A stretch of DNA of 64,000 bases, taken from the NCBI RefSeq assembly GCF_048403405.1, contig NZ_CP183129.1; one strand, written 5' to 3'. Source of the stretch: Escherichia coli (GTDB lineage: Bacteria; Pseudomonadota; Gammaproteobacteria; Enterobacterales; Enterobacteriaceae). Made by a program: the position numbers and the translations under genes. The notes beneath the pieces were generated by a model that saw only the letters and a program-made list of their open reading frames with translations, was not told the origin of the DNA and ran no database searches. Positions 2 through 63,484 of this stretch are shown here, in pieces (within the stretch, counting starts at the first letter, position 1; each line of letters starts with the position of its first letter).

Positions 2-154
2 GATAATTCTGTTATTGGCGCGGGTAGTGTCGTCATAAAAGACATTCCACCAAACGTCGTGGCTGCTGGCGTTCCTTGCCGGGTTATTCGCGAAATAAAC
101 GACCGGGATAAGCACTATTATTACAAAGATTATAAAGTTGAACCTTCAGTTTAA
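2..154 (+). CDS. lacA: Galactoside O-acetyltransferase, C-terminal 50 codons (5' end outside window)
   Basis: Open frame from window edge to TAA at 152-154; translation ...[49 protein letters not shown] matches the LacA tail. Confidence 0.85.
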
Positions 155-171
155 ATTAGCACTGAAATAAA

Positions 172-201
172 TGTCGGATGCGCCATTGGGCACATCCGAC
201 A
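172..201. terminator. Imperfect hairpin between convergent lacA and cynX; part of a 56 bp repeat (see findings)
   Basis: tgtcggatg...catccgaca inverted repeat read directly; no clear U-tract. Confidence 0.45.
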
Positions 202-241
202 ATAATTCACTCTTCCATTATCTGGCGAAACAAGCGTCGCA

Positions 242-1396
242 TCATGCCTCTTTGACCCACAGCTGCGGAAAACGTGCTGGTGCAAAACGCAGGGTTATGA
301 TCATCAGCCCAACGACGCACAGCGCATGAAACGCCCAGTCCATCAAGTAATTGCCACTGATACTACGCAGCACACCAGAAAACCACGGGGCAAGCCCGGC
401 GATGATAAAACCGATCCCCTGCATAAACGCCACCAGTTTGCCAGCAATAGCGGGTTGCGCAGAGTGATCGAGCGCCAGCAGCAAACAGAGCGGAAATGCG
501 CCGCCCAGACCTAACCCACACACCATTGCCCACAATACCGGCAATTGCAGCGGCAGCCAGATAAAGCCGCAGAACCCCACCAGTTGTAACGCCAGCGCCA
601 GCATCAAAAGTTTGCGCCGATCCTGATGGCGAGCCATAGCAGGCATCAGCAATGCCCCTGCTGCTTGCCCAAGCGTCATCAATGCCAGCAAGGAACCGCT
701 GTACTGCGCGCTGGCACCAATCTCAATATAGAAAGCGGGTAACCAGGCAATCAGGCTGGCGTAACCGCCGTTAATCAGACCGAAGTAAACACCCAGCGTC
801 CAGGCGCGGGGAGTAAATACCACGCGAACCGGAGTGGTTGTTGTCTTGTGAGAAGAGGCGACCTCGCGGGCGCTTTGCCACCACCAGGCAAAGAGCGCAA
901 CAACGGCAGGCAGCGCCCACCAGGCGAGTGTTTGATACCAGGTTTCGCTATGTTGAACTAACCATGGCGTCATGGCGGCACCAAGTCCACCGCCGCCCAT
1001 CAGAGCCGCGGACCACAGCCCCATCACCAGTGGCGAGCGCTGCTGAAACCGCCGTTTAATCACCGAAGGCATCACTGCCTGAATGATGCCGATCCCCACT
1101 CCACCAAGCAGTGCGCTGCTAAGCAGCAGCGCACTTTGGGGGTAAAGCTCACGCATCAATGCTCCGACGGCAATCAGTAACAAACTGATGGCGACGCTGC
1201 GACGTTCGCTGACATGCTGATGAAGCCAGCTTCCGGCCAGCGCCAGCCCGCCCATGGTAACCACCGGCAGAGCGGTCAACAGGGCTGCCACGCTAAAGCT
1301 CATTCCACTCGCCTGACGCAATTGCGGTAGCAGTGGTCCGACGGAGGTGAGCAGTGGTCGCATATTAAGACCAATCAGCACCAGAACCAGCAGCAT
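242..1396 (-). CDS. cynX: Cyanate transporter, MFS family
   Basis: ORF track 242..1423; start moved to internal ATG (1394-1396) giving MLLVLVLIGLNMRP..., as recalled for CynX; multi-pass hydrophobic protein. Confidence 0.85.
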   Translation of the reverse strand: MLLVLVLIGLNMRPLLTSVGPLLPQLRQASGMSFSVAALLTALPVVTMGGLALAGSWLHQHVSERRSVAISLLLIAVGALMRELYPQSALLLSSALLGGVGIGIIQAVMPSVIKRRFQQRSPLVMGLWSAALMGGGGLGAAMTPWLVQHSETWYQTLAWWALPAVVALFAWWWQSAREVASSHKTTTTPVRVVFTPRAWTLGVYFGLINGGYASLIAWLPAFYIEIGASAQYSGSLLALMTLGQAAGALLMPAMARHQDRRKLLMLALALQLVGFCGFIWLPLQLPVLWAMVCGLGLGGAFPLCLLLALDHSAQPAIAGKLVAFMQGIGFIIAGLAPWFSGVLRSISGNYLMDWAFHALCVVGLMIITLRFAPARFPQLWVKEA

Positions 1397-31044: not shown

Positions 31045-31977
31045 ATGAACTCAATTTTTACCGAAGAGAATCTGTTGGCATTTACTACCGCTGCGCGTTT
31101 TGGCAGTTTCAGTAAAGCCGCAGAAGAGTTGGGTTTAACCACTTCCGCCATTAGCTACACCATCAAGCGAATGGAAACAGGGCTGGATGTGGTGCTGTTC
31201 ACTCGCAGTACCCGAAGCATTGAGTTAACGGAGTCCGGGCGTTATTTTTTCCGCAAAGCTACCGACCTGCTGAATGATTTTCACGCCATCAAACGCAGCA
31301 TCGATACTATTTCGCAGGGTATAGAAGCACGGGTGCGCATTTGTATTAACCAACTGCTTTATACGCCCAAACACACCGCACGCTTATTACAGGTACTTAA
31401 AAAGCAGTTTCCAACCTGCCAGATTACCGTGACGACCGAAGTGTATAACGGCGTCTGGGATGCGATTATTAATAATCAGGCGAATATTGCTATCGGCGCA
31501 CCCGACACACTGCTGGACGGCGGCGGCATTGATTACACGGAGATTGGCGCAATTCGCTGGGCTTTTGCTATCGCCCCGGATCACCCATTAGCCTTTGTGC
31601 CGGAGCCGATCGCCGAAAGCCAGCTGCGTCTTTACCCCAATATCATGGTGGAGGACACCGCGCATACGATTAATAAAAAAGTGGGCTGGTTGCTGCATGG
31701 GCAAGAGTCGATTCTGGTGCCAGATTTCAACACCAAATGTCAGTGCCAGATTTTAGGTGAAGGGATTGGTTTTTTGCCGGATTACATGGTCCGTGAGGCG
31801 ATGGCGCAATCCCTGCTGGTTACCCGACAAATCCATAATCCGCGCCAGGATTCACGCATGTTACTCGCAACTCAGCATTCTGCTACGGGTCAGGTGACGC
31901 AGTGGATTAAAAAACAATTTTCGCCAAATGGCATATTAACGGGGATCTATCAGGATTTACTGCATCGGGAGAATTAA
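31045..31977 (+). CDS. yahB: LysR-family transcriptional regulator
   Basis: 310 aa; N-terminal HTH ...FTTAARFGSFSKAAEELGLTTSAISYTIKRMETGL. Confidence 0.85.
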   Translation: MNSIFTEENLLAFTTAARFGSFSKAAEELGLTTSAISYTIKRMETGLDVVLFTRSTRSIELTESGRYFFRKATDLLNDFHAIKRSIDTISQGIEARVRICINQLLYTPKHTARLLQVLKKQFPTCQITVTTEVYNGVWDAIINNQANIAIGAPDTLLDGGGIDYTEIGAIRWAFAIAPDHPLAFVPEPIAESQLRLYPNIMVEDTAHTINKKVGWLLHGQESILVPDFNTKCQCQILGEGIGFLPDYMVREAMAQSLLVTRQIHNPRQDSRMLLATQHSATGQVTQWIKKQFSPNGILTGIYQDLLHREN

Positions 31978-57819: not shown

Positions 57820-58746
57820 TTAACTTTCTATTTTTACTCTTTTCTCCACCATAAAATCAATAAAAGCACGAACTTTAGAGGGCATTCTCACCCGTGATGA
57901 AACATATATATAAAATCCAGGAAATGAAACGGCCCAATCCTCAAGAATCGGCTGTAACTTGCCCGCATTGATATGTTCAGCGATTGCAAAATCCAGATGT
58001 TGAATGATACCCGTTCCATTCAGCGCCATTCGTATCATGCTTTCGTCATCATTAGAAATATACTTACCTGAAACCTCTATTTCGAACTCTTCATTACCCC
58101 CCACAACATTAGAAAACTCCCATGCAGAGAGTGCACCGCTACTTTTATGCCGCAACCGAAGGCAATTATGGTTACTCAGTTCCTGAGGCGTTTCAGGAAT
58201 ACCGTGTTCTTTTAAATAATCTGGCGATGCCACAGTAACCAGTTTAATAAGCGGAGAAACAGGAACGGCAGTCATATGCTCATCCAGTCCTTGCTCAAGA
58301 CGTATGCCCACATCACAGCCGTCCGCAATAATGTTAGATAAACCGTCATCCATAATGAGTTCTATCTTTGTTTTGGGGTAACGAGTAAGAAACTCGCCAA
58401 TATGAGGCTCAACAAGCATCCGTGCTGCAACACGGGAGGAATTTATTCTCAACAGGCCTGTAGGTTCAAGTTGGGTATCACCAACATCTTTCAAAGCATC
58501 ATCAATTTGCCCCAAAGCCGACACCAGCACTTCATACAGACGCTGTCCTTCCTCAGTAAGCGACATATTGCGGGTCGTACGGTATATCAGCTTGGTGTTA
58601 AGACGTTCCTCAAGAGATTTTAAATTCTGGGACAATGCGGCCCGTGTAATACCCATTTCAGAAGCGGCTCTGGAAAAACTGCCGGCACGAACAATAAGCG
58701 CAAACCAGGCAAGAGAAGGCAAAATTGAAGGCTCTATTTTCATCAT
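57820..58746 (-). CDS. LysR-family transcriptional regulator, divergent from hydrolase/OYE genes
   Basis: ORF track 57820..58809; ATG at 58744-58746 gives MMKIEPSILPSLAWFALIVRAGSFSRAASEMGITRAALSQNLKSLE. Confidence 0.8.
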   Translation of the reverse strand: MMKIEPSILPSLAWFALIVRAGSFSRAASEMGITRAALSQNLKSLEERLNTKLIYRTTRNMSLTEEGQRLYEVLVSALGQIDDALKDVGDTQLEPTGLLRINSSRVAARMLVEPHIGEFLTRYPKTKIELIMDDGLSNIIADGCDVGIRLEQGLDEHMTAVPVSPLIKLVTVASPDYLKEHGIPETPQELSNHNCLRLRHKSSGALSAWEFSNVVGGNEEFEIEVSGKYISNDDESMIRMALNGTGIIQHLDFAIAEHINAGKLQPILEDWAVSFPGFYIYVSSRVRMPSKVRAFIDFMVEKRVKIES

Positions 58747-58902
58747 TGTAAACCTTAACTTAACACTGTGATAGATATTAGACCATTGATGATAACCAAT
58801 ACAAGTCATACTATTACGCCGTTCTCGATATGAACACGAATGCCAGTTGCGGATAATAGAAATGATATTTAAATCTGTTTAGGCAAATCCCCGGAGCTTG
58901 AA

Positions 58903-59823
58903 ATGAAAACTGTTTCGATAAAACATACTTACTGGGATATAGCTGCTGATATCTATTTCCCTGACGATTTTAATAGTGAAAAAAAGTATCCTGCCATTAT
59001 CAGCGCCCATCCAATTGGAAGCTGCAAAGAACAGACATCGGGCAGTGTGTATGGTGCCGCCCTGGCAAAAGCTGGCTTTATCGTCATTGCTTTTGATGCC
59101 AGTTTTCAGGGAAGCAGCGGTGGAGAACCGCGTTATCTGGAAGATCCAACAATGCGAGTAAAAGACTTCAGCATTGTCGTTGATTACCTTACCACCTTAC
59201 CTTACGTTGATGCCGGGCGTATTGGTGTACTGGGTATTTGTGGTGGAGGTGGATATGCCATTAATGCCGCAATGACAGAACGTCGAATTAAAGCTATTGG
59301 TACTGTCACGGGTGCAAACTACGGGCGTCTTATGCGTGAGGGATTTACAGCGTTTAATCCTATCGGAGCACTCGAAGCGATGGCGCAACAAAGAACAGAC
59401 GAAGCTAACGGCGCAAAACTTCGCGTAGATGATTTACTCCCCTCTTCTCCGGATGCAGCTCTTGAAGCGGGATTAACAGAAATAGACCTTTTTGAAGCCA
59501 CAGAATATTATCGTTCGCCACGAGGCTGTGCACCTAATGGGGTAAATCGTTCGCTATTCTCACATCAGACTGTTGCCGTGGGTTGGGATGCATTTCATCT
59601 TGCAGAAGTCCTGTTAACTCAACCAATAATGGTTGTGGTGGGCGATAGAGTGGGCGCATTTGGTGCCTACCGTGACGGCTGCGAAATTATTGGCCGCGCT
59701 GCCTCAAAACATAAAGAGCTGGTCGTGGTTGAAGGTTATTCACATTACGACCTGTATGATAAGCCAGAACCTGTGAAACAGGCACTCGAAAAATTAATTC
59801 CTTTTTATAAAACACATTTGTAA
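58903..59823 (+). CDS. Alpha/beta hydrolase, dienelactone-hydrolase-like with Cys nucleophile
   Basis: 306 aa; nucleophile elbow GICGGGGY with Cys in place of the usual Ser, as in dienelactone hydrolases. Confidence 0.7.
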   Translation: MKTVSIKHTYWDIAADIYFPDDFNSEKKYPAIISAHPIGSCKEQTSGSVYGAALAKAGFIVIAFDASFQGSSGGEPRYLEDPTMRVKDFSIVVDYLTTLPYVDAGRIGVLGICGGGGYAINAAMTERRIKAIGTVTGANYGRLMREGFTAFNPIGALEAMAQQRTDEANGAKLRVDDLLPSSPDAALEAGLTEIDLFEATEYYRSPRGCAPNGVNRSLFSHQTVAVGWDAFHLAEVLLTQPIMVVVGDRVGAFGAYRDGCEIIGRAASKHKELVVVEGYSHYDLYDKPEPVKQALEKLIPFYKTHL

Positions 59824-59831
59824 TAATCTTA

Positions 59832-59865
59832 CAGGGAGATTCCTTATCTCCCTGACATTTATCCT
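59832..59865 (+). terminator. Rho-independent terminator after the hydrolase gene
   Basis: cagggagat-tcctt-atctccctg followed by a T-rich tract. Confidence 0.6.
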
Positions 59866-59995
59866 TTATTGACTACACAACAATAATAAAATTACTCAAA
59901 AAGAATTCTATTAAAGGAAAAAAGCATCAAAAAGTAGCAACTCAACTTATTAAGATTATACGCATTAAAATCAGATAAACATTTGAGGTATTGTT

Positions 59996-61138
59996 ATGAC
60001 AAATAAACACCCATCATTGTTTTCTCCTTTTATGCTGACAGAAAAAATAAAGCTACGTAATCGTATCGTTATGGCCCCTATGACGACCTGGTCAGCGAAT
60101 CCTGATGGAACCATCTCTGAGCAAGAACTCGAATTTTATAAACGCCGCTCACAAAATGTTGGTTTAGTAATAACAGGATGTACCTATGTCACGCCAAGCG
60201 GCATTGGGTTTACTCATGAATTTGCCGCGTATGACGACCGTTTCATTAACAGCCTTGAAAAGTTAGCAGCGGCAGCCAAAAGTGGCGGTGCTCCGGCTAT
60301 TTTGCAGATTTTCCACGCCGGTAATAAAGCCATCCCGGAGCTTGTGCCAAATAACGATGTTATTAGTGCCAGCGCATCAAGCGTAAAATCTGGTGACTTT
60401 ATGAAGAGAGTGGTACAAAGCAGGGAAATGACTGAAAACGAAATTCAGGAAACCATTAGAGCATTCGGAGATGTCACAAAAAGGGCGATTAAAGCAGGTT
60501 TTGATGGCGTTGAACTTCATGGTGCGCACGGATTCCTTCTGCAGAATTTCTTCTCCCCTCTATTTAACCAGCGTAATGACCGATGGGGAGGAGATCTTGA
60601 AGGACGTATGCGCTTCCCGCTGGCCGTATTACAGGAAGTAAAAAATGTAGTCTATGAATATGCGACAAAGCGCTTTGCTATCGGTTACAGAATATCTCCT
60701 GAAGAATCTGTAACAGGGGGGCTGCGGATAGAGGATACTTATAAACTCCTTGATCGACTCATTTCATCCGGTATTTCGTATATACATACCTCGCTGGTCA
60801 GTATTAACGATAGCTACCCTGTTGAGTCGCCAAATGGCCCCCGAACTATTGAATTGATTTTAAATCATATTGCAGGCAGAGTGCCGGTAATCGCTGCAGG
60901 TAAAATACGCACACCGTCTCAGGCTCAAGAAGCAATTTCCGCTGGCCTGCCACTTGTTGCGATCGGTAAAGGGCTGGTGATAAATCCAGAATGGGTGACT
61001 TTAGCTGAATCAGGTAGAAGCCATGAAATTCAAACAACCCTTAATCCACAACTTGTTCCTGAATTAACCATTCCGGATAAACTATGGGATCAAATTCAGG
61101 CATCGAAAGGAACTGGCTGGTTTCCGTTAATGGATTAA
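59996..61138 (+). CDS. NADH:flavin oxidoreductase, Old Yellow Enzyme family
   Basis: 380 aa; OYE active-site signature ELHGAHGFLLQNFFSP and TIM-barrel FMN motifs. Confidence 0.85.
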   Translation: MTNKHPSLFSPFMLTEKIKLRNRIVMAPMTTWSANPDGTISEQELEFYKRRSQNVGLVITGCTYVTPSGIGFTHEFAAYDDRFINSLEKLAAAAKSGGAPAILQIFHAGNKAIPELVPNNDVISASASSVKSGDFMKRVVQSREMTENEIQETIRAFGDVTKRAIKAGFDGVELHGAHGFLLQNFFSPLFNQRNDRWGGDLEGRMRFPLAVLQEVKNVVYEYATKRFAIGYRISPEESVTGGLRIEDTYKLLDRLISSGISYIHTSLVSINDSYPVESPNGPRTIELILNHIAGRVPVIAAGKIRTPSQAQEAISAGLPLVAIGKGLVINPEWVTLAESGRSHEIQTTLNPQLVPELTIPDKLWDQIQASKGTGWFPLMD

Positions 61139-61568
61139 ATATCTATTACTCTCCCGAGAGTAAAACTATTAAACCAATGAGTAACCGATACAGCCTCGCA
61201 AATTCTTTCAGATAATTAACTCGTCACTGCGGCACGTTCTCTCGTAAGGCGTGCCTGCTGTGTAATCCAGTATGTATCCGGCATAGTTGACGGTTTAATA
61301 GAACTCAATTCCTCTCCCAGGTCACCAACAACGATATCTTGTATAACACCCCAGGAGATACGACATTATGATGAGATGCGATATGCTCCTCAGCGCCAAT
61401 CAACGCCCGGGCTGGGCCAGTTTTGAGATCAGACTCATTCCCGGACTGACTTCAGGCGACATATATCAATGACGTTGGGGCAATAAAAGATAGCCGATGT
61501 AATACATCTATTCAAATTTGTGATACATGTCAAAAAATTGGTTGACCAAACTCGTTATTTATATAAGG

Positions 61569-61593
61569 GCACTTACGAAGTGCACTCTTTTTT
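61569..61593 (+). terminator. Small terminator-like hairpin with T6 tract just upstream of ykgR
   Basis: gcactt-acg-aagtgc-actc-tttttt. Confidence 0.45.
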
Positions 61594-61610
61594 AAAGCGA
61601 GGAAGTACCA

Positions 61611-61712
61611 ATGAAAGAGAATAAAGTACAACAAATCAGTCATAAACTGATTAATATCGTTGTTTTTGTCGCAATTGTAGAATACGCCTATTTATTTCTC
61701 CATTTCTATTAA
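61611..61712 (+). CDS. ykgR: Small hydrophobic protein (33 aa)
   Basis: ATG 61611 with SD gaggaag; MKENKVQQISHKLINIVVFVAIVEYAYLFLHFY; not in the supplied ORF track (too short), found by hand. Confidence 0.6.
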   Translation: MKENKVQQISHKLINIVVFVAIVEYAYLFLHFY

Positions 61713-62037
61713 TAACGGCAATAAACTGTTCACTTCAGTGATATTAAAAAATATGCATCCTCTCCCTTTTTTGTAAGTAATTATTATATCCGTGGGAGAG
61801 GAATACACGCTGTCCGGCAATCAAACTGCGATAAATCATCGGCCAGTAAAATGGAGATAGCCTCCATTCTCGAAAAATTCATACTCTCAGCGAAACCATC
61901 ACTCATCAAGGCGTTTATGGGAGCGTCGCCAATGGCTGCTAACAATGCCAGACTTCCCCGTTACCGAAATTCCACATACCACAAATGGTCACAGGGATTG
62001 GGTGTTGAAATGATCCGGATGAGCATGTATCTTTATG

Positions 62038-62055
62038 GTTATGTTATAACATAAC
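62038..62055. promoter_or_regulatory. Zur box (zinc uptake regulator operator) upstream of ykgM
   Basis: Perfect palindrome GTTATGTTATAACATAAC, 12 bp before ykgM; matches the known Zur consensus core. Confidence 0.75.
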
Positions 62056-62066
62056 AGGTAAAAATG

Positions 62067-62330
62067 ATGAAGCCCAATATCCATCCTGAGTATCGTACTG
62101 TGGTGTTCCATGACACCAGTGTTGATGAGTACTTTAAAATCGGCTCGACTATCAAAACAGACCGTGAGATTGAGCTGGATGGCGTAACGTATCCGTACGT
62201 GACAATTGATGTCTCTTCTAAATCGCACCCGTTCTATACAGGGAAGCTGAGAACAGTGGCATCAGAAGGAAATGTTGCACGATTCACCCAACGTTTTGGT
62301 CGTTTTGTTAGCACGAAAAAGGGGGCATGA
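62067..62330 (+). CDS. ykgM: Ribosomal protein L31 paralog (type B, zinc-independent)
   Basis: 87 aa [23 protein letters not shown]..., lacking the CxxC zinc ribbon. Confidence 0.9.
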
Positions 62331-62470
62331 TGAAAGTCCTTAACTCTCTGCGTACCGCAAAAGAACGCCATCCAGACTGTCAGATTGTGAAGCGAAAAGG
62401 ACGGCTATATGTGATTTGTAAATCTAATCCACGTTTTAAGGCCGTTCAGGGTCGTAAGAAAAAACGTTGA
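62330..62470 (+). CDS. ykgO: Ribosomal protein L36 paralog (zinc-independent)
   Basis: 46 aa [46 protein letters not shown]; ATGA overlap with ykgM stop; not in ORF track, found by hand. Confidence 0.85.
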
Positions 62471-62527
62471 TTCAAAATTCGACGAATTAACGATATTTGT
62501 CTGATTAATAATCAGACCGGATTAATG

Positions 62528-62558
62528 TTGGTGTATTTATTACACCAGCATTAATTTT
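62528..62558 (+). terminator. Terminator-like hairpin downstream of ykgMO
   Basis: ttggtgta-tttat-tacaccag followed by cattaatttt. Confidence 0.5.
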
Positions 62559-62876
62559 CCTGGGGATGTATCTTCCTGTTCATTTAAGGTCAACTGCCTG
62601 ACGTTTCTCTCCGAATATTCCATTATATTAATGTTGACTTGTTGACCAGGTGCGCCCTGTATGCTGGCATCAACTCTCTTTTAGACTGAACACGCCACTC
62701 AGTTTCCTCCCTTTGCGACGCAGCCTGCATTTACACTCAAACGGTTAAGATGATAAATGTGGTAAATCTGTTGGTACTGACATAAAAACGTTTACGCCAC
62801 AGGAACGGCCTGATCCACCGGTAACCCCATCGCCGACGTTCGAGTGCCAGTTAGAGTAACGCGCACAGATGACTGA

Positions 62877-63101
62877 ATGCAGTGCCCTGGCAAAGAGGCC
62901 ATCGTTCCTGTGACAACTGGCAGTCTTCGTTTAACTTCACTTAATTTGGCTCTTAGGGGGCTTACCGGACAGATGACGTACTTACACCTGTTTAATTTTT
63001 CATCACTTATTGGGATGAACACCCATAACCATTTTGTGCGGCATGTTAATCCATTAAAACACCTTACTGATTGGCAAATCATCTTTAATTATGACTCATG
63101 A
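62877..63101 (+). CDS. Small hypothetical ORF at the position of ykgL; strand ambiguous (overlapping 96 aa ORF on minus strand at 62792..63082)
   Basis: 74 aa ORF; I cannot confirm which strand corresponds to annotated ykgL. Confidence 0.25.
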   Translation: MQCPGKEAIVPVTTGSLRLTSLNLALRGLTGQMTYLHLFNFSSLIGMNTHNHFVRHVNPLKHLTDWQIIFNYDS

Positions 63102-63484
63102 TAGTTTTATATTCTATTTCTTATCATTTAAACTTGTTTTTTTACTAGTCCATTACACAACACATTAAGACTATTCCTAACACCTCAGGGCAAAGTTCCT
63201 GGCTAATATAAAATGCAAGTAAGAATTGAACGTTATATTGCCAATAACCTTATGAAACTGAATGTCTTTTTCTTCTTATCAAAAAAGCAATATTTTCATT
63301 TTTTGTAAATATTGACTTAACCATGGAATTCCTTTTCTGTTCACATATTGACACTCATCAGGAAAAAAACATAAATTTAAACCTAATCGAAATAATTAAA
63401 ACTTAATCTCGTTTAATCTATATTGATATGTGCTACGTATCTTATTTACTTCCGATTTACTAAAGAAACTGAATGTACCTGTAA

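Follow-up and report, generated by a model that had tools for sequence, protein, structure and literature searches.

The Zur-controlled ykgMO operon and its Escherichia-specific neighbour ykgR on an Escherichia coli chromosome

In other bacteria, Zur boxes are located at the promoters of genes whose products are zinc-free paralogues of ribosomal proteins with a zinc ribbon. The closest known systems include the following: the ykgMO (L31p/L36p) system of E. coli K-12, which is said to go back to Panina 2003; the ykgM-rpmJ2 operon of Y. pestis; ytiA of B. subtilis; and the mycobacterial altRP operon. All of these are Zur-regulated genes or operons for C- ribosomal paralogues. Among such operons, the L31B-L36B pair and the position of the operator are common to the Enterobacterales and Vibrio loci examined in our study. 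Outside the gamma-proteobacteria, the operators have other sequences and the paralogues involved are not the same. The ykgMO/Zur switch described below is already known and is a standard case of zinc-sparing ribosome remodelling. The additions made here are twofold: the distance between the operator and ykgM is nearly fixed over about 80 species; and ykgR, which adjoins the operon in Escherichia alone and possesses a conserved control region of its own as well as a mapped 3' end, should be excluded from the Zur regulon.

The DNA analysed was a stretch of 64,000 nt, hereafter the window. The 1.6 kb around ykgR-ykgM-ykgO shares 100% identity with E. coli TUM14771, which identifies the window as E. 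coli chromosome, and this same 1.6 kb has matches in 5090 of 5426 complete E. coli genomes. The RefSeq annotation of strain TUM14771 was transferred to window coordinates. The RefSeq coordinates of ykgR, ykgM, and ykgO are exactly those read from the sequence, and the span of 61611-62470 reported in an initial sequence-only reading runs precisely from the start of ykgR to the stop of ykgO. The RefSeq annotation also placed a gene for an NADH-dependent flavin oxidoreductase (59996-61138) upstream of ykgR; ykgL (62505-62730), which is convergent to ykgO and frameshifted here; and, farther downstream, ecpR. A survey of positions 60900-63300 on both strands against Rfam at a permissive threshold gave zero matches.

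The comparison with E. coli K-12 revealed the same order of genes, ykgR-ykgM-ykgO-ykgL-matA(ecpR), as in the window. The gene set and order of ykgMO are identical, and the coding DNA of ykgM and ykgO is 99% identical in the two strains. Differences from K-12 are strain-level substitutions located only outside functional elements, together with the frameshift of ykgL in the window strain. The region upstream of ykgR differs as well: an intact cluster of LysR, alpha-beta hydrolase, and flavin-oxidoreductase genes is present in the window, while K-12 has ykgP, a remnant of the oxidoreductase, and eaeH/IS3.

With a probability of about 93%, this stretch is made up of two independent transcription units, namely ykgMO, which is repressed by Zur, and ykgR, which is free of Zur control. 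In the first unit, a sigma-70 promoter would be followed by a Zur operator that spans the predicted transcription start and reaches up to the Shine-Dalgarno sequence. At sufficient zinc, two Zn-loaded Zur dimers would occupy about 30 bp and prevent transcription; when the cell is starved of zinc, Zur would leave and the operon would be upregulated several hundred- to thousand-fold. The expected products are a cysteine-free L31 from ykgM and, from ykgO, an L36 that lacks two of the four zinc ligands, the latter being presumably translated from a start that overlaps the ykgM stop, with a Shine-Dalgarno sequence inside the end of ykgM. In the ribosome, L31B and L36B would take the place of the zinc-binding L31 and L36, and L31B would also repress rpmE, so that zinc would be spared or released. 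The second unit, ykgR, would have its own conserved upstream block of 115 nt, and its transcript would end at about 61807. The parts of this scheme concerning Zur binding, repression, the zinc response, ribosome incorporation, and the ykgR 3' end come from published experiments with K-12, while the exact ykgM start, translational coupling, the ykgMO terminator, and the ykgR promoter were deduced here from the sequence.

The gene ykgR (61611-61712, plus strand) encodes a small inner-membrane protein of 33 amino acids, as annotated in RefSeq and by the NCBIfam equivalog NF041474 (78.1 bits, with a cutoff of 40). Its Shine-Dalgarno sequence, GAGGA (61599-61603, plus strand), is located 7 nt before the ATG and is invariant in the Escherichia alignment. 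The sequence-only reading had already recognized this 33-aa frame and its own Shine-Dalgarno sequence, and the detection of the YkgR peptide, which it had proposed as a check, is published for K-12. Residues 13-31 display a mean Kyte-Doolittle hydropathy of +2.0 and follow a polar, basic N-terminus, as in a protein with a single hydrophobic helix. In the Escherichia comparison, the species differ from each other by conservative substitutions only, and none of these affects the last 11 residues. According to published work on E. coli, YkgR contacts SRP post-translationally and is a substrate for cleavage by RseP; its induction in stationary phase is stated in reviews. YkgR is a member of the Hemm/Storz set of small stress-associated membrane proteins of E. 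coli, which includes YohP, YshB, and AzuC. Within this comparison, YkgR is distinguished by being Escherichia-only in the loci examined, and no tie to zinc was found for it. The tblastn search detected ykgR in Escherichia loci only, and about 78 other ykgMO loci have no ykgR within 2.5 kb. No second copy of ykgR is present in the 64-kb window. Among the additional ykgR matches in other genomes, the one in strain UTME-3 is a 5'-truncated remnant.

The survey of the DNA upstream of ykgR revealed a conserved block (61496-61610, plus strand), which is delimited by the onset of conservation and represents the putative ykgR promoter and leader. Across E. coli, E. albertii, and cryptic Escherichia, conservation sets in abruptly some 115 nt ahead of the ykgR ATG. 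The genes located beyond this border are variable in the three Escherichia lineages: the oxidoreductase gene; an oppositely oriented ORF of 362 aa, which may encode an OTU-type protease judging from its sequence; and a LysR gene, likewise in the opposite orientation. Among Escherichia species, the block shares 85-93% identity with the window, a range similar to those of the coding regions of ykgR (89-91%) and ykgM/ykgO (86-91%). No canonical -10 hexamer for ykgR was evident in the upstream sequence. The SMRT-Cappable-seq supplement has no entry for a ykgR transcription start, and the Cappable-seq GTF has no coordinates in this range. The Reg-Seq preprint includes the ykgR promoter among its targets.

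The block includes a weak stem-loop (61569-61583) and a run of six T residues (61588-61593), both on the plus strand, which together have a terminator-like form. The stem ends 27 nt and the T6 run 17 nt before the ykgR ATG. One explanation of this element is that it represents a working intrinsic terminator, which halts read-through from the flavin-oxidoreductase operon and insulates ykgR. The consensus form is indeed present, with an A-rich 5' side and a T-run on the 3' side that give the element a bidirectional look. The T6 run is invariant, and the pairing is kept or even extended in E. albertii (-14.1 kcal/mol) despite substitutions in the stem. In E. coli, however, the stem is very weak: it comprises 6 bp with a 3-nt loop, and its centroid energy of -6.2 kcal/mol corresponds to a z of only -0.9 against shuffled sequences. 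The terminator scan of a 2-kb region detected one site, as compared to 1.7 expected in shuffles. The element is also conserved in species that possess no gene on the same strand upstream, and K-12 Term-seq data list no 3' end at 61569-61593, although K-12 is devoid of the upstream operon. Finally, a gap of 27 nt between the stem and the ATG is too short for a promoter, so the hairpin is not an insulator ahead of a ykgR promoter; it must belong to the ykgR leader or border on it, or else share sequence with the promoter, and a functional terminator in this position would also stop the transcript of ykgR itself. Taken together, insulation of ykgR by this hairpin appears rather doubtful.

The same block contains a CRP-like motif, TGTGATACATGTCAAA (61519-61534, plus strand), which has one mismatch to TGTGA-N6-TCACA and should be regarded as a lead only. 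The half-sites TGTGA and TCAAA are kept in three Escherichia species and changes are confined to the N6 spacer, but the number of matches to this pattern in the window (4, with 1.74 expected) is not significant. Combination of these features with the 3' end described below yields a speculative picture of ykgR regulation, which we consider improbable as a whole. Namely, ykgR might be controlled through its conserved 115-nt leader, with the CRP-like box responding to catabolite or growth-phase signals and the 5' stem-loop with the U-run acting as an attenuator or stabiliser, while the non-canonical 3' end at 61807, set by a hairpin, would perhaps delimit a stable 3'-UTR fragment. If true, this would mean that ykgR has a regulation of its own that is unrelated to zinc.

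A defined 3' end of the ykgR transcript was found in the K-12 Term-seq data (Adams 2021, supplementary file 1). This 'orphan' end at 313047(-) is represented by 48,378 reads in LB at OD 0.4 and by 59,236 reads in LB at OD 2.0. It is listed in the LB sheets and is absent from the M63-glucose sheet (Adams 2021); with regard to the CRP-like motif, this absence is at most suggestive. An identical 51-mer at 61757-61807 assigns K-12 position 313047(-) to position 61807 of the window. The ykgM promoter lies some 200 nt beyond this ykgR-sense 3' end. The end itself is located 5-6 nt past a long-loop hairpin (61758-61802, plus strand), which has a fold z of -3.6 and is closed by the arms CCTCTCCC (61759-61766) and GGGAGAGG (61794-61801). 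In cryptic Escherichia, the complementarity of these arms is held by means of a G-U pair. Since a U-tract is missing, the end at 61807 could be a processed, Rho-trimmed, or Rho-dependent end. For this reason, some read-through from ykgR into ykgM is conceivable.

Between this end and the ykgM promoter there is a poorly conserved spacer (61808-62004), which shares 86% identity with K-12 and only 49-61% identity with other Escherichia. It contains indels of about 87 nt relative to E. albertii and the cryptic clade, and of 7 nt relative to K-12. The spacer region is marked as H-NS bound by Shimada 2014 (PMC3946193). A 67-aa ORF that extends from the spacer into the operator (61851-62054) was considered as a gene and rejected; it has no family match, and its frame is broken by the 7-nt K-12 indel.

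These data bear on the view that ykgR, ykgM, and ykgO form a single three-gene zinc-starvation module, which is co-transcribed or co-regulated under the control of Zur. This view agrees with the location of all three genes on the same strand, their adjacency (the gap between ykgR and ykgM is 354 nt), the presence of ykgR and of ykgMO each in about 93% of complete E. coli genomes, and the fact that the scan detected no canonical intrinsic terminator between ykgR and ykgM. However, the strong ykgR-sense 3' end at 61807 occurs in the growth conditions of Term-seq, in which ykgMO is repressed or silent. The Zur operator is located 3' of ykgR, and the position weight matrix (PWM) scan detected no Zur-like site upstream of ykgR, where the best score was -5.8 bits. 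About 78 ykgMO loci outside Escherichia retain the operator but possess no ykgR, and no other segment of the whole region is as poorly conserved as the spacer. In addition, ykgR and ykgMO are treated as separate units in PMC3946193. A common Zur-controlled module is therefore highly improbable, and the grouping made in the title of the sequence-only reading reflects nothing but position. The same reading had also considered ykgR a possible unit of its own. This conclusion holds, since the 3' end, the lack of a Zur box, the gene's own upstream block, and its absence from other genera identify ykgR as a separate, Zur-independent, Escherichia-specific unit; the hairpin in front of ykgR, on which, together with the Shine-Dalgarno sequence, the suggestion had been based, is a weak argument for it given the weak stem and the lack of room for a promoter.

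The Zur operator of ykgMO is a perfect 18-bp palindrome, GTTATGTTATAACATAAC (62038-62055), which was identified by its fit to the motif, by PWM score, and by conservation. The symmetry ends at 18 bp with no further extension. The palindrome had been placed 12 bp before ykgM in the sequence-only reading, and it is present there, with 11 nt between the two elements and the ATG starting 12 nt after the palindrome. It satisfies all constrained positions of RxxxYRxxR*YxxYRxxxY, the 18-bp E. coli Zur motif of Gilston 2014 (PMC4219657), and the variable positions are fully palindromic too. It is also the sole gapless perfect palindrome of at least 16 bp in the 64-kb window. In the scan with a PWM built from the operators of orthologous ykgM loci, the site at 62035-62058 scored 34.3 bits, as compared to 5.9 bits for the runner-up, and no second Zur box was detected in the vicinity of ykgR or in the rest of the 64-kb window.

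The consensus scan identified a sigma-70 promoter for ykgMO (62005-62033, plus strand), composed of TTGAAA, a 17-nt spacer, and TATCTT. The -10 hexamer occupies positions 62028-62033, and the operator begins 5 nt later, over the predicted transcription start of ykgM, as expected for a Zur box. Identical hexamers are given for ykgMO in the list of RpoD constitutive promoters (Shimada 2014; PMC3946193). A role of the transcribed palindrome as a regulatory RNA hairpin was considered and rejected, as the predicted start falls inside the left arm and at most 4-6 AU pairs remain.

Conservation of the operator was assessed by sampling ykgM orthologs with YkgM as a query and one genome per species, which yielded 80 loci ranging from Escherichia to Serratia, Photorhabdus, Brenneria, and Vibrio. 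An 18-mer with no more than four mismatches to the palindrome was present within 150 nt before ykgM in 81 of 81 loci, while the chance rate for such a match is, by our own calculation, about one locus in 2000. The distance from the end of the 18-mer to the ykgM ATG is 10-14 nt in 75 of these 81 loci; within the 18-mer, positions 4 and 8-10 never vary. Within E. coli, the 67-nt promoter-operator region is identical in 2985 of 5061 records, and sampled variants differ solely outside the operator 18-mer. From the -35 hexamer through the ykgM ATG, the window shows no difference from K-12.

The function of this operator has been well characterized in K-12. It is the most palindromic operator of the E. 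coli Zur regulon and the one with the tightest Kd (Gilston 2014; PMC4219657). Zur produces a footprint of about 30 bp on the K-12 L31p operator and represses it 560-fold in vivo (PMC4219657). A ykgM-lacZ fusion that includes the operator is silent in a zur+ background and is upregulated about 1000-fold with zur::kan or TPEN (Aseev 2020; PMC7297116). Comparison with published Zur regulon data and a zinc-limitation reporter assay, both named as checks in the sequence-only reading, are thereby answered by work already published for K-12. By virtue of sequence identity, Zur binding, repression, and the zinc response may be carried over from K-12 to the window strain. The annotation, the family models, the orthologous loci, and the published K-12 experiments all agree with the earlier description of ykgMO as a known, well-preserved system under the control of Zur.

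The idea that an AT-rich inverted repeat arose here by chance, or that the palindrome is a site for a regulator other than Zur, such as Fur, can draw on the fact that, by composition alone, one perfect 18-bp case per 64 kb is not very improbable (one palindrome of at least 18 bp was seen, with 0.32 expected from composition-matched shuffles), but the exact fit to the Zur motif, the constant placement before ykgM across Enterobacterales and Vibrio, and the published footprint and 560- to 1000-fold Zur/zinc dependence on the identical K-12 sequence, for which this idea is refuted, leave it practically no probability. Taken alone, the palindrome is just slightly out of the ordinary; the case against chance comes from its placement and its conservation.

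The gene ykgM (62067-62330, plus strand) encodes the type B (zinc-free) ribosomal protein L31. Its Shine-Dalgarno sequence, AGGT (62056-62059, plus strand), abuts the operator, and the AGG is kept in Escherichia. An alternative in-frame ATG at 62064, located 8 nt from the palindrome, is missing in E. albertii, cryptic Escherichia, and E. coli HCM-28C-2, and ykgM therefore starts at 62067. YkgM matched the NCBIfam model for type-B L31, NF002462, with 122.9 bits (cutoff 86) and Pfam PF01197 with 87 bits, while its scores for the type-A L31 models NF000612 and NF001809 were under their cutoffs. The protein has zero cysteines: residues C16, C18, C37, and C40 of K-12 RpmE align to T, V, S, and S, respectively. 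YkgM also carries a 12-residue insertion relative to K-12 RpmE. Residues 1-68 of YkgM are fully identical to chain D7, 'L31 type B', of the E. coli ribosome structure PDB 6i7v over the 68 residues of this chain; by its identity to a solved chain, YkgM is assigned to the L31 site of the ribosome. L31p has been shown to repress rpmE via the rpmE leader (Rasmussen 2022; PMC9825181).

The second gene of the operon, ykgO (62330-62470, plus strand), encodes the type B ribosomal protein L36. YkgO scored 91 bits with the NCBIfam type-B L36 model NF002021 (cutoff 70), the Pfam result concurs, and the protein is identical over the resolved residues to chain C5, 'L36 2', of PDB 6i7v. Relative to RpmJ, two of the four zinc ligands are lost in YkgO (C11 is replaced by H14 and H33 by F36), which leaves the Cys3His set incomplete, while C14 and C27 of RpmJ are retained. 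H14, C17, and C30 remain as possible ligands, and the zinc-free state of YkgO is not proven by sequence alone.

The two genes are tightly linked. The TGA of ykgM (62328-62330) overlaps the ATG of ykgO (62330-62332) by 1 nt (TGATG) within GCATGATGAAA, and the Shine-Dalgarno sequence of ykgO, AAGGGGG (62319-62325), is located inside the 3' end of the ykgM ORF. The E. albertii junction has one ATG only, with an ATGA overlap, which confirms MKVL as the beginning of the ykgO product. In nearly all of the 80 orthologous loci, ykgO lies immediately 3' of ykgM with an overlap or a gap of 0-8 nt. Of the earlier claim that the two paralogues are translationally coupled at an ATGATG junction, the sequence itself, the overlap of stop and start, and the Shine-Dalgarno sequence inside ykgM were all found as described; the coupling of ykgM and ykgO is probable from this arrangement.

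Downstream of ykgO, two stem-loops are present, one at 62499-62517 and one with a 17-bp stem at 62519-62557, which form a putative bidirectional terminator shared with the convergent ykgL. The fold of the region 62465-62570 has an energy of -38.1 kcal/mol (z = -5.8), and transcription of ykgMO probably ends at the hairpins in 62499-62557. Since the tail of the large hairpin (62519-62557) is only 4 U long, it may be an inefficient intrinsic terminator. The only 3' end that the K-12 Term-seq data (Adams 2021) show here is on the opposite strand, at 312325(+); it falls within the ykgL ORF as annotated, at the foot of the large hairpin.

The 3' end of the ykgR-sense transcript mapped in K-12 by Term-seq (313047, minus strand) corresponds to window position 61807. 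It lies immediately 3' of a long-loop hairpin (61758-61807, including the 3' end), which consists of a GC-rich stem of 8-9 bp and an AU-rich loop of approximately 27 nt and lacks a U-tract. In the source data this end is assigned to the class 'orphan' and its LB read counts are high. It may represent the end of the ykgR mRNA, either Rho-trimmed or processed, or else a stable 3'-UTR fragment. The ykgR-sense end was present in the LB Term-seq sheets and absent from the M63-glucose sheet. A CRP-like site, TGTGATACATGTCAAA, is located at 61519-61534 within the conserved block upstream of ykgR; its two half-sites are kept in three Escherichia species.

The convergent ykgL ORF (62505-62730, minus strand) carries a frameshift according to this strain's annotation. 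In K-12, Term-seq places the ykgL-sense 3' end (312325) 14 nt ahead of the ykgL stop codon, at the base of the 17-bp hairpin. The ORF as annotated thus reads across its own terminator, and it is therefore doubtful that ykgL is a genuine gene. In addition, supplementary file 2 of Adams 2021 has an entry at K-12 312466 (+) for a region of Rho-dependent termination on the strand antisense to ykgO and ykgM; this corresponds to the minus strand of the window inside ykgO/ykgM. Accordingly, transcription entering from the ykgL side appears to be halted by Rho within the ykgMO operon.

The genes for a LysR regulator, an alpha/beta hydrolase, and an OYE-family NADH flavin oxidoreductase (59996-61138), which precede ykgR at about 57900-61138, are all intact in the window. 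In K-12, by contrast, the pseudogene ykgP, which consists of the final 90 nt of the oxidoreductase gene, is all that is left of it, and eaeH and IS3 come next. The E. albertii locus (L003) carries upstream of ykgR an ORF of 362 aa (91-1179, minus strand). Its proline-rich repeats and the DGNCLYHA motif at the C-terminal end suggest that it encodes a cysteine protease of OTU-like type, which might be a secreted effector.

The ykgR-ykgM spacer (61808-62004) and its counterparts in other Escherichia (L003 and L004) evolve rapidly. An indel of approximately 87 nt distinguishes E. coli from E. albertii or the cryptic Escherichia, and a 7-nt indel of the CATCATCA type separates this strain from K-12. 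A suppressor that was reported to give a ydgH deletion mutant of BW25113 resistance to detergent is a point mutation within this spacer (PMC11705850).

Of the complete E. coli genomes, about 7% have neither ykgR nor ykgMO. In strain UTME-3, all that is left is a 5'-truncated ykgR remnant adjoining a LysR gene. The places matched by a 315-nt ykgR query in the complete E. coli genomes exceed the records by approximately 850; part of the query is therefore repeated in some genomes. Besides the Zur operator, the sole perfect palindrome of at least 14 bp within the 64-kb window is GATTATTAATAATC (31464-31477).
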